Positions 63,001 to 64,000 of a DNA stretch of 64,000 nucleotides are shown piece after piece. A program made the position numbers. The stretch's first letter is position 1. Every line of letters starts with the position of its first letter. The stretch lies in the NCBI RefSeq assembly GCF_057098645.1, contig NZ_CM169472.1; one strand, given 5' to 3'.

Positions 63001-64000
63001 AATCGGCGGCAACCGCTGAACCGGCAGAGAACATCAGGGACGCGAAGGTTAAACCAAGCAGGCTTTTTTTCATTTTTTATACTCCATAGTCAGATGACGA
63101 CTTTCCCAGCATGCGCTTCAGAGTGTCGTCTTTATCGATGAAATGATGCTTCAGGGCCATAAATCCGTGCATAACGGACAGTACTACGACGCTCCACGCG
63201 AGCCAAAAATGCAGGGCACCGGCAAAGTCTGCCTGTGCGCCAGCGTCGGCAAGGGTCGCGGGGACGTCAAACCAGCCAAAAACGCTGATCGGTTTACCAT
63301 CGGCAGTTGAGATCAGATAGCCGCTGATGCCGATGGCGAACAGCAATAGGTACAATGCGAGATGTCCAGCTTTTGCGGCAAGACGAGTCATGGGCGAATA
63401 ACTCGGCAGCGGACCCGGCGGTGGAGATATGACGCGCCACAGAACGCGAATAACCAGCCCCATCATTAACAAAATACCGATGCTTTTATGCAGTTCGGGT
63501 GCTTTGTGATACCAGCCATCGTAATAACTGAGCGTGACCATCCACAGACCTAAGGAAGGTGCGAATAAGCAGGTCATTTCTTCCCAAGCTGACTCGTTGA
63601 TTAAAATTTCGCGGATCTGGGCCGATTTTTTTCCCGCAAACACATCGAATCAGCCTATTTAGGCTATTTTTTCCACCATTTCTGGCGTTATTTCCGGTTT
63701 TTACTGAGATCTCTCCCACTGACGTATCATTTGGTCCACCCGAAACAGGTTGGCCAGGGTGAATAACATCGCCAGTTGGTTATCGTTTTTCAGCAGCCCC
63801 TTGTATCTGGCTTTCACGAAGCCGAACTGCCGCTTGATGATGCGAAACGGGTGCTCCACCCTGGCACGGATGCTGGCTTTCATGTATTCGATGTTGATGG
63901 CCGTTTTGTTCTTGCGCGGATGCTGCTTCAAGGTTTTTACCTTGCCGGGACGCTCGGCGATCAGCCAGTCCACATCCACCTCGGCCAGCTCCTCGCGCTG

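Follow-up and report, generated by a model that had tools for sequence, protein, structure and literature searches.

In the Escherichia coli strain studied here, the cytochrome b561-family gene yceJ has been interrupted by what we read, at a probability of about 93%, as the simple insertion of a 1196-bp insertion sequence (IS) of the ISKpn26 type into a CTAA of the gene, leaving a non-functional 3' remnant followed by an intact yceI. Inactivation of a gene in this way by a known IS is ordinary, and one of the same kind is already annotated in a RefSeq genome. The features that carry the argument are given below by their positions in the window, i.e., the whole stretch of 64,000 nucleotides that was analysed.

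62498-63073, minus strand: yceI, encoding a YceI-family periplasmic lipid-binding protein, intact (191-aa ORF; PF04264, E=2.9e-49; yceI is annotated at the same place in strains EPSSH018 and RM9872).
63077-63553, minus strand: yceJ 3' remnant (cytochrome b561 family), codons 31-188 and stop, a putative pseudogene fragment without transmembrane (TM) helix 1 and His18 (identity to intact yceJ; PF01292 from profile position 22 only).
63077-63643, minus strand: chimeric 188-aa ORF with a GTG start, 30 IS-derived codons in frame with yceJ codons 31-188 (ORF listing and alignment to intact YceJ).
63486-63719, minus strand: second IS/yceJ chimeric ORF, 77 aa, in another frame (ORF listing; the equivalent in EPSSH018, CDS 4410-4643, WP_309598001.1, is a 'hypothetical protein' of PGAP).
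63550-63553, no strand: CTAA, a 4-bp IS5-type target (YTAR) and left copy of the expected target-site duplication, abutting the inverted repeat.
63554-63570, plus strand: terminal inverted repeat of the IS, IRR end (downstream of the transposase gene), a single exact match in the window and equal to the first 17 nt of the same end of canonical IS5 in strain 23555.
63554-64000, minus strand: first 447 nt, from the IRR end, of a 1196-bp IS5-family element of ISKpn26 type, the other ~749 nt of which lie past the window end (447/447 identical to the EPSSH018 copy).
63571-63700, minus strand: non-coding 3' region of the IS, from the transposase stop to the inverted repeat, the part most diverged from canonical IS5 (in the alignment, differences cluster here).
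63701-64000, minus strand: C-terminal 99 codons and stop of a DDE transposase, homologue of ins5A (PF01609, E=2.9e-10, profile positions 92-200 of 200).

The position of the breakpoint follows from comparison with uninterrupted genes. On the minus strand, 63077-63553 correspond to the last 477 nt of E. coli yceJ at 100% identity to intact alleles; with the intact locus of O145 strain RM9872 the agreement is complete over 2477 nt of flank and gene (0 mismatches), and the first difference falls at 63554. Searched by megablast against 5,426 complete E. coli genomes, 63077-64000 found yceJ in practically every one, over query positions 1-477 only, that is, up to 63553. Everything from 63554 to 64000 is IS, and the 5' truncation of yceJ by an IS5-like element that was proposed in the first-pass annotation is thereby confirmed. 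The start of the inverted repeat, placed there at 63551, has to be moved to 63554; the CTAA at 63550-63553 is native yceJ sequence and not part of the IS. An exact copy of the 17-mer GGAAGGTGCGAATAAGC stands at 63554-63570 and nowhere else in the 64-kb window (chance expectation with up to three mismatches in the window, 0.19 matches). The 16-bp terminal inverted repeat of the IS5 group, GGAAGGTGCGAA(T/C)AAG, is likewise exact at 63554-63569 and unique in the window, and the same repeat forms the ends of the IS5 and ISKpn26 copies in EPSSH018 (L001), 23555 (L002), and WP9-S17-ESBL-11 (L005).

The element itself is, by sequence identity, a known, catalogued, and very common isoform of the ISKpn26 type. 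First, over the 447 nt available it agrees at 100% with ISKpn26-annotated copies on plasmids of E. coli, Klebsiella, Salmonella, and Enterobacter, the isoform call being made against such annotated copies and not against the ISfinder reference entry. Second, the full transposase of the identical element in EPSSH018 (L001, CDS 4625-5605) has 326 aa, matches PF01609 (1.6e-35) and PF05598 (DUF772; 3.3e-21), and carries the RefSeq label 'IS5-like element ISKpn26 family transposase'. Third, 1761 E. coli records have the same IS type at ≥99% identity, and the plasmid records that carry it number at least 3663, most of them from Klebsiella (2393) and Escherichia (1460). The IS had been suspected of being a variant that departs from canonical IS5, and so it does (88.6% identity over 447 nt to the copy in strain 23555), but it is the widespread ISKpn26 isoform and not a new one: a novel IS5 variant was rejected on the 100% identity to thousands of ISKpn26-annotated copies. 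At full length, the EPSSH018 copy is 91.2% identical to IS5, with 73% in nt 1-100, 87% in nt 101-200, and 94-99% in the middle 600 nt, and the two transposases are 98% identical proteins. Canonical IS5 of E. coli K-12 (1195 bp) shares with the type in the window the first 17 nt of the repeat, the YTAR target, and, going by the copies in other genomes, the 4-bp duplication; the window type is one base longer and diverges mainly in the non-coding ends; the published IS5 target consensus is C(A/T)A(G/A), with a 4-bp duplication (PMC11677980). From ISKpn26 (IS5 family, IS5 group, 1196 bp) the element shows no difference, only its target does: chromosomal yceJ of E. coli instead of mgrB, which ISKpn26 inactivates by repeated insertion at +74/75 in unrelated K. 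pneumoniae (PMC8796155).

A copy of this type is also present in K-12. Positions 1408028-1408474 of K-12 ER2796, the 'IS5' copy in lomR of the Rac prophage, are 99.6% identical to the IS part of the window and are thus of the ISKpn26 type. lomR::IS5 has been described as a 'mutant' IS5, with 91.5% similarity to the wild type and incapable of transposition (PMC11677980), a value that matches the 91.2% measured for the EPSSH018 copy against IS5. Although that copy is held to be decayed, the same sequence type is represented here by fresh insertions, and because these are missing from the nearest relatives, the lomR type is mobile in natural populations.

The 188-codon ORF arises at the junction, where the frame of the remnant runs on without a stop through 30 codons of the IS end until it reaches a GTG. 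The IS-derived part of this ORF amounts to 90 nt or 30 codons (VFAGKKSAQIREILINESAWEEMTCLFAPS) in the alignment to intact YceJ, one codon fewer than the 31 counted before; from residue 31 (Leu) on the sequence is native, and residues 31-188 are identical to YceJ of the WP_000011108.1 type. Intact YceJ, also of 188 aa, has the N-terminus MSFTNTPERYGVISAAFHWLSAIIVYGMFA and continues with LGLWMV..., as does the window ORF after its own first 30 residues. Since the hybrid is in frame and its length equals that of native YceJ, these 30 residues could be taken for a genuine alternative N-terminus, resembling an IS by chance. The probability of this is practically nil: intact YceJ begins with a different, hydrophobic stretch that carries His18, the gene is uninterrupted in 5418 of 5424 complete E. 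coli genomes, the 90 nt sit in a 447-nt stretch 100% identical to IS copies on unrelated plasmids, and the exact 188-aa product has no record in the assembly index. Intact homologues were examined for the N-terminal residues of the window ORF and have a different N-terminus, which bears out the chimeric start seen at first reading; the equal length of the hybrid ORF and native YceJ is a coincidence. The predicted 38-aa N-terminal fragment (MSFTNT...MFALGKVRTSS) is likewise without record in the assembly index. A consensus scan of 62900-64000 found no sigma-70-like promoter, which leaves an outward promoter at the IS end unsupported, and three terminator-like sites, all on the plus strand and weak. 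Because TM helix 1 is lost and there is no promoter-like site near the IS end, we conclude that the 188-aa ORF is no gene but an artefact that ORF listing picks up at the junction, and yceJ is predicted to be a pseudogene in this strain. The 77-aa ORF at 63486-63719 is almost certainly an annotation artefact.

The loss of the first TM helix of the protein, anticipated in the first reading, is seen by several measures. In a 19-residue hydropathy scan, intact YceJ shows four hydrophobic segments, of which the hybrid ORF lacks the first and keeps three, and the mean Kyte-Doolittle value is 0.03 in the 30 IS-derived residues (hydrophilic, with no hydrophobic segment) versus 0.69 in the native 30. 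The PF01292 profile is matched by intact YceJ over positions 1-178 (E=4e-30) and by the remnant over positions 22-178 (E=9.6e-25). As for membership in the cytochrome b561 family, the PF01292 domain is present in the remnant, and the set of four TM helices with conserved histidines, including that of TM1, is incomplete. Intact YceJ belongs to the same family as the cytochrome b561 superoxide oxidase CybB of E. coli (structure 5OC0), to which it aligns along its whole length (residues 9-184, E=2e-14) with its His18 opposite CybB His13, which we take to be the axial heme-1 ligand in 5OC0; the copy in the window is without TM1 and His18. In the QM region of CybB, His13 has been grouped with heme 1 and its ligand His151 (PMC11869295). 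Because TM1 and His18 lie in the 30 lost residues, the remnant would be unable to form a four-helix di-heme bundle, and we infer that the truncated protein is either absent or non-functional. The downstream partner of yceJ is yceI, whose start codon lies 3 nt past the yceJ stop, and the pair shares the arrangement of lcoA-bcnA (cytochrome b561 and YceI lipocalin). In Burkholderia, lcoA-bcnA limits membrane lipid peroxidation (PMC9113575), in a paper that never mentions 'yceJ' and has E. coli YceJ outside its scope; a literature search on yceJ with cybB and superoxide returned nothing specific on the function of E. coli YceJ.

With 447 nt of the IS inside the window, what lies at its other end (second junction, duplicated target, detached 5' piece of yceJ) is known from a proxy, the complete genome of EPSSH018. 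It carries a 1196-bp element at the same CTAA and in the same orientation, with GGAAGGTGCGAA... inverted repeats and CTAA on both sides, and directly behind the IS come yceJ codons 30-1 and then yceO. PGAP annotates two cytochrome b pseudogene pieces around this IS, the remnant as 'cytochrome b, incomplete, missing N-terminus'. For our strain, an ISKpn26-type IS would have transposed into the CTAA at yceJ codons 30/31 of the E. coli chromosome, with its transposase gene co-oriented with yceJ, and would have parted the first 30 codons (TM helix 1 and His18) from the rest of the gene. The second junction would then lie ~750 bp past the window, after ~749 more IS bases ending ...CTTGTTCGCACCTTCC / ...AACTTGTTCGCACCTTCC, and the sequence predicted after the far IS end is CTAAAGCAAACATGCCGTAGAC (yceJ codons 30 to 1), followed by yceO.

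An IS end could also mark a larger IS-mediated rearrangement (a deletion or inversion between IS copies) or a mis-join in the assembly, with the 5' piece of yceJ elsewhere. Such a reading can point to the window stopping inside the IS, to the multiplicity of IS5-type elements, which occupy up to 43 places per genome, and to one genome with an IS1-associated deletion of the 5' part of yceJ. We consider it very unlikely, however, given that the only complete genome with the same junction, EPSSH018, has a simple insertion with a CTAA duplication, that a CTAA right against the repeat is what a primary insertion characteristically leaves, and that the identical junction recurs in 12 independent short-read assemblies. 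The insertion in the window is recent and independent of that in EPSSH018, because the closest relatives of the window (Z1323HEC0399 and UTME-3), which are 100.0% identical to it over 24.5 kb, match it only up to 63553, and yceJ of Z1323HEC0399 is intact, with 188 aa. EPSSH018 was rejected as the source of the window, from which it departs at 2 positions of the yceJ remnant and by 44 mismatches over 4 kb of flank.

The same CTAA has received other elements. Six complete genomes have an interrupted yceJ core, and four of the interruptions were identified: three are IS5-group elements at exactly this CTAA, and one is an IS1 with a deletion. Together with draft genomes, the insertions at this site are as follows.

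EPSSH018: ISKpn26-type, 1196 bp; same orientation as in the window.
17-07187 (L004, 3478-4672): 1195-bp mosaic of an IS5-type right end and an ISKpn26-like body; opposite orientation, same CTAA.
WP9-S17-ESBL-11 (L005, 3478-4673): ISKpn26-type, 1196 bp; opposite orientation, same CTAA.
Draft genomes GCA_009820535.1 and GCA_900479485.1 (L014, 1-75; L023, about 293-1488): canonical IS5; opposite orientation, same CTAA.

The 4-bp CTAA duplication is also present at the opposite-orientation insertions of 17-07187 and WP9-S17-ESBL-11. When the 166-aa product of an in-frame ATG inside the IS end was looked up, 12 short-read contigs with the identical junction were retrieved, in several haplotypes; among the six examined, 13-53 substitutions per 4.4 kb separate each from the window and from the others, some of them within yceI and the yceJ remnant. 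The yceJ CTAA has been used repeatedly and independently, in keeping with the known site selectivity of IS5/ISKpn26, and the recurrence at one position parallels that of ISKpn26 at mgrB. Taken as proof of a strong hot spot, the recurrence has to be tempered: yceJ contains only three YTAR tetranucleotides, of which the CTAA at 63550-63553 is one. For the same reason, it is not strong evidence for selection.

Other variation was observed at the locus. In many assemblies, the yceJ start codon is changed from ATG to ATA (around 1399-1401 in L016 and L022; ~100 nt beyond the IS position in the uninterrupted locus), and gene callers start at Met35; the resulting 154-aa product is listed in 188 blocks of the collection. 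The ATA allele is another, apparently common, route to the loss or shortening of YceJ. In strain 102651 (L006, 3440-4345), an IS1-family element has taken the place of the spacer and of the beginning of yceJ, whose remnant of 288 nt ends elsewhere than in the window, and in L020 (618-1121) an IS1 lies upstream of yceJ where yceO would be. Strain 23555 (L002, 3832-5026) has an intact yceJ with a canonical 1195-bp IS5 upstream of it, in the yceJ-yceO intergenic region; this copy, too, sits at a CTAA, shows a 4-bp duplication, and is oriented like the IS of the window. Finally, the junction-bearing Logan contigs L008-L013, of 5487-5495 bp, share a break near window position 58,090, upstream of mdtG, which points to a further repeat or variable element at that place in these strains.

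Transposase gene, yceJ remnant, and yceI are co-oriented. At nmpC::IS5, transcription from a host promoter enters IS5 and drives ins5A (PMC11677980), and transcripts from the ins5A promoter traverse the entire IS5 into fucAO (PMC11894529). By analogy, yceI may still be transcribed across the IS, from the yceJ or the ins5A promoter, and expression of the IS copy in the window from the yceJ promoter is plausible. These precedents also bear on the idea that the insertion was selected or has a regulatory role (YceJ being lost, yceI expression changed, or the IS made an active donor by transcription that runs in from the yceJ promoter), which would account for the repeated use of the site. We regard this as unlikely. 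It would fit with the ISKpn26-type, mosaic, and canonical IS5 elements that the same CTAA holds in both orientations and several haplotypes, and with the widespread ATG>ATA start allele, which suggests that yceJ is dispensable; but with three YTAR sites in yceJ a coincidence of sites is not improbable, the insertion is found there in only 3 of 5426 complete genomes and without sign of clonal expansion, and no promoter-like site was seen at the IS end in the scan of 62900-64000. A broader proposal, which we put forward as doubtful, is that the yceJ CTAA is a true hot spot for the whole IS5 group (at least five haplotypes), kept by local DNA structure or by selection for YceJ loss, and that co-oriented copies, read from a stress-responsive yceJ promoter, would be unusually active donors (cf. 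nmpC::IS5), with yceI expressed via read-through.

The simple insertion of an ISKpn26-type element into yceJ has several implications. For annotation, an ORF that has the length of native YceJ and a strong Pfam match would be called an intact cytochrome b by a naive pipeline, and a suitable description is a pseudogene fragment adjoining an ISKpn26-type element. For the organism, the strain would have lost one of the cytochrome b561 paralogues of E. coli, the partner of the YceI lipocalin. For the IS5 family, the use of one CTAA by several IS5 variants is a modest data point on target choice, and the IS5 type deemed a dead 'mutant' in lomR of K-12 is an active element in natural populations.
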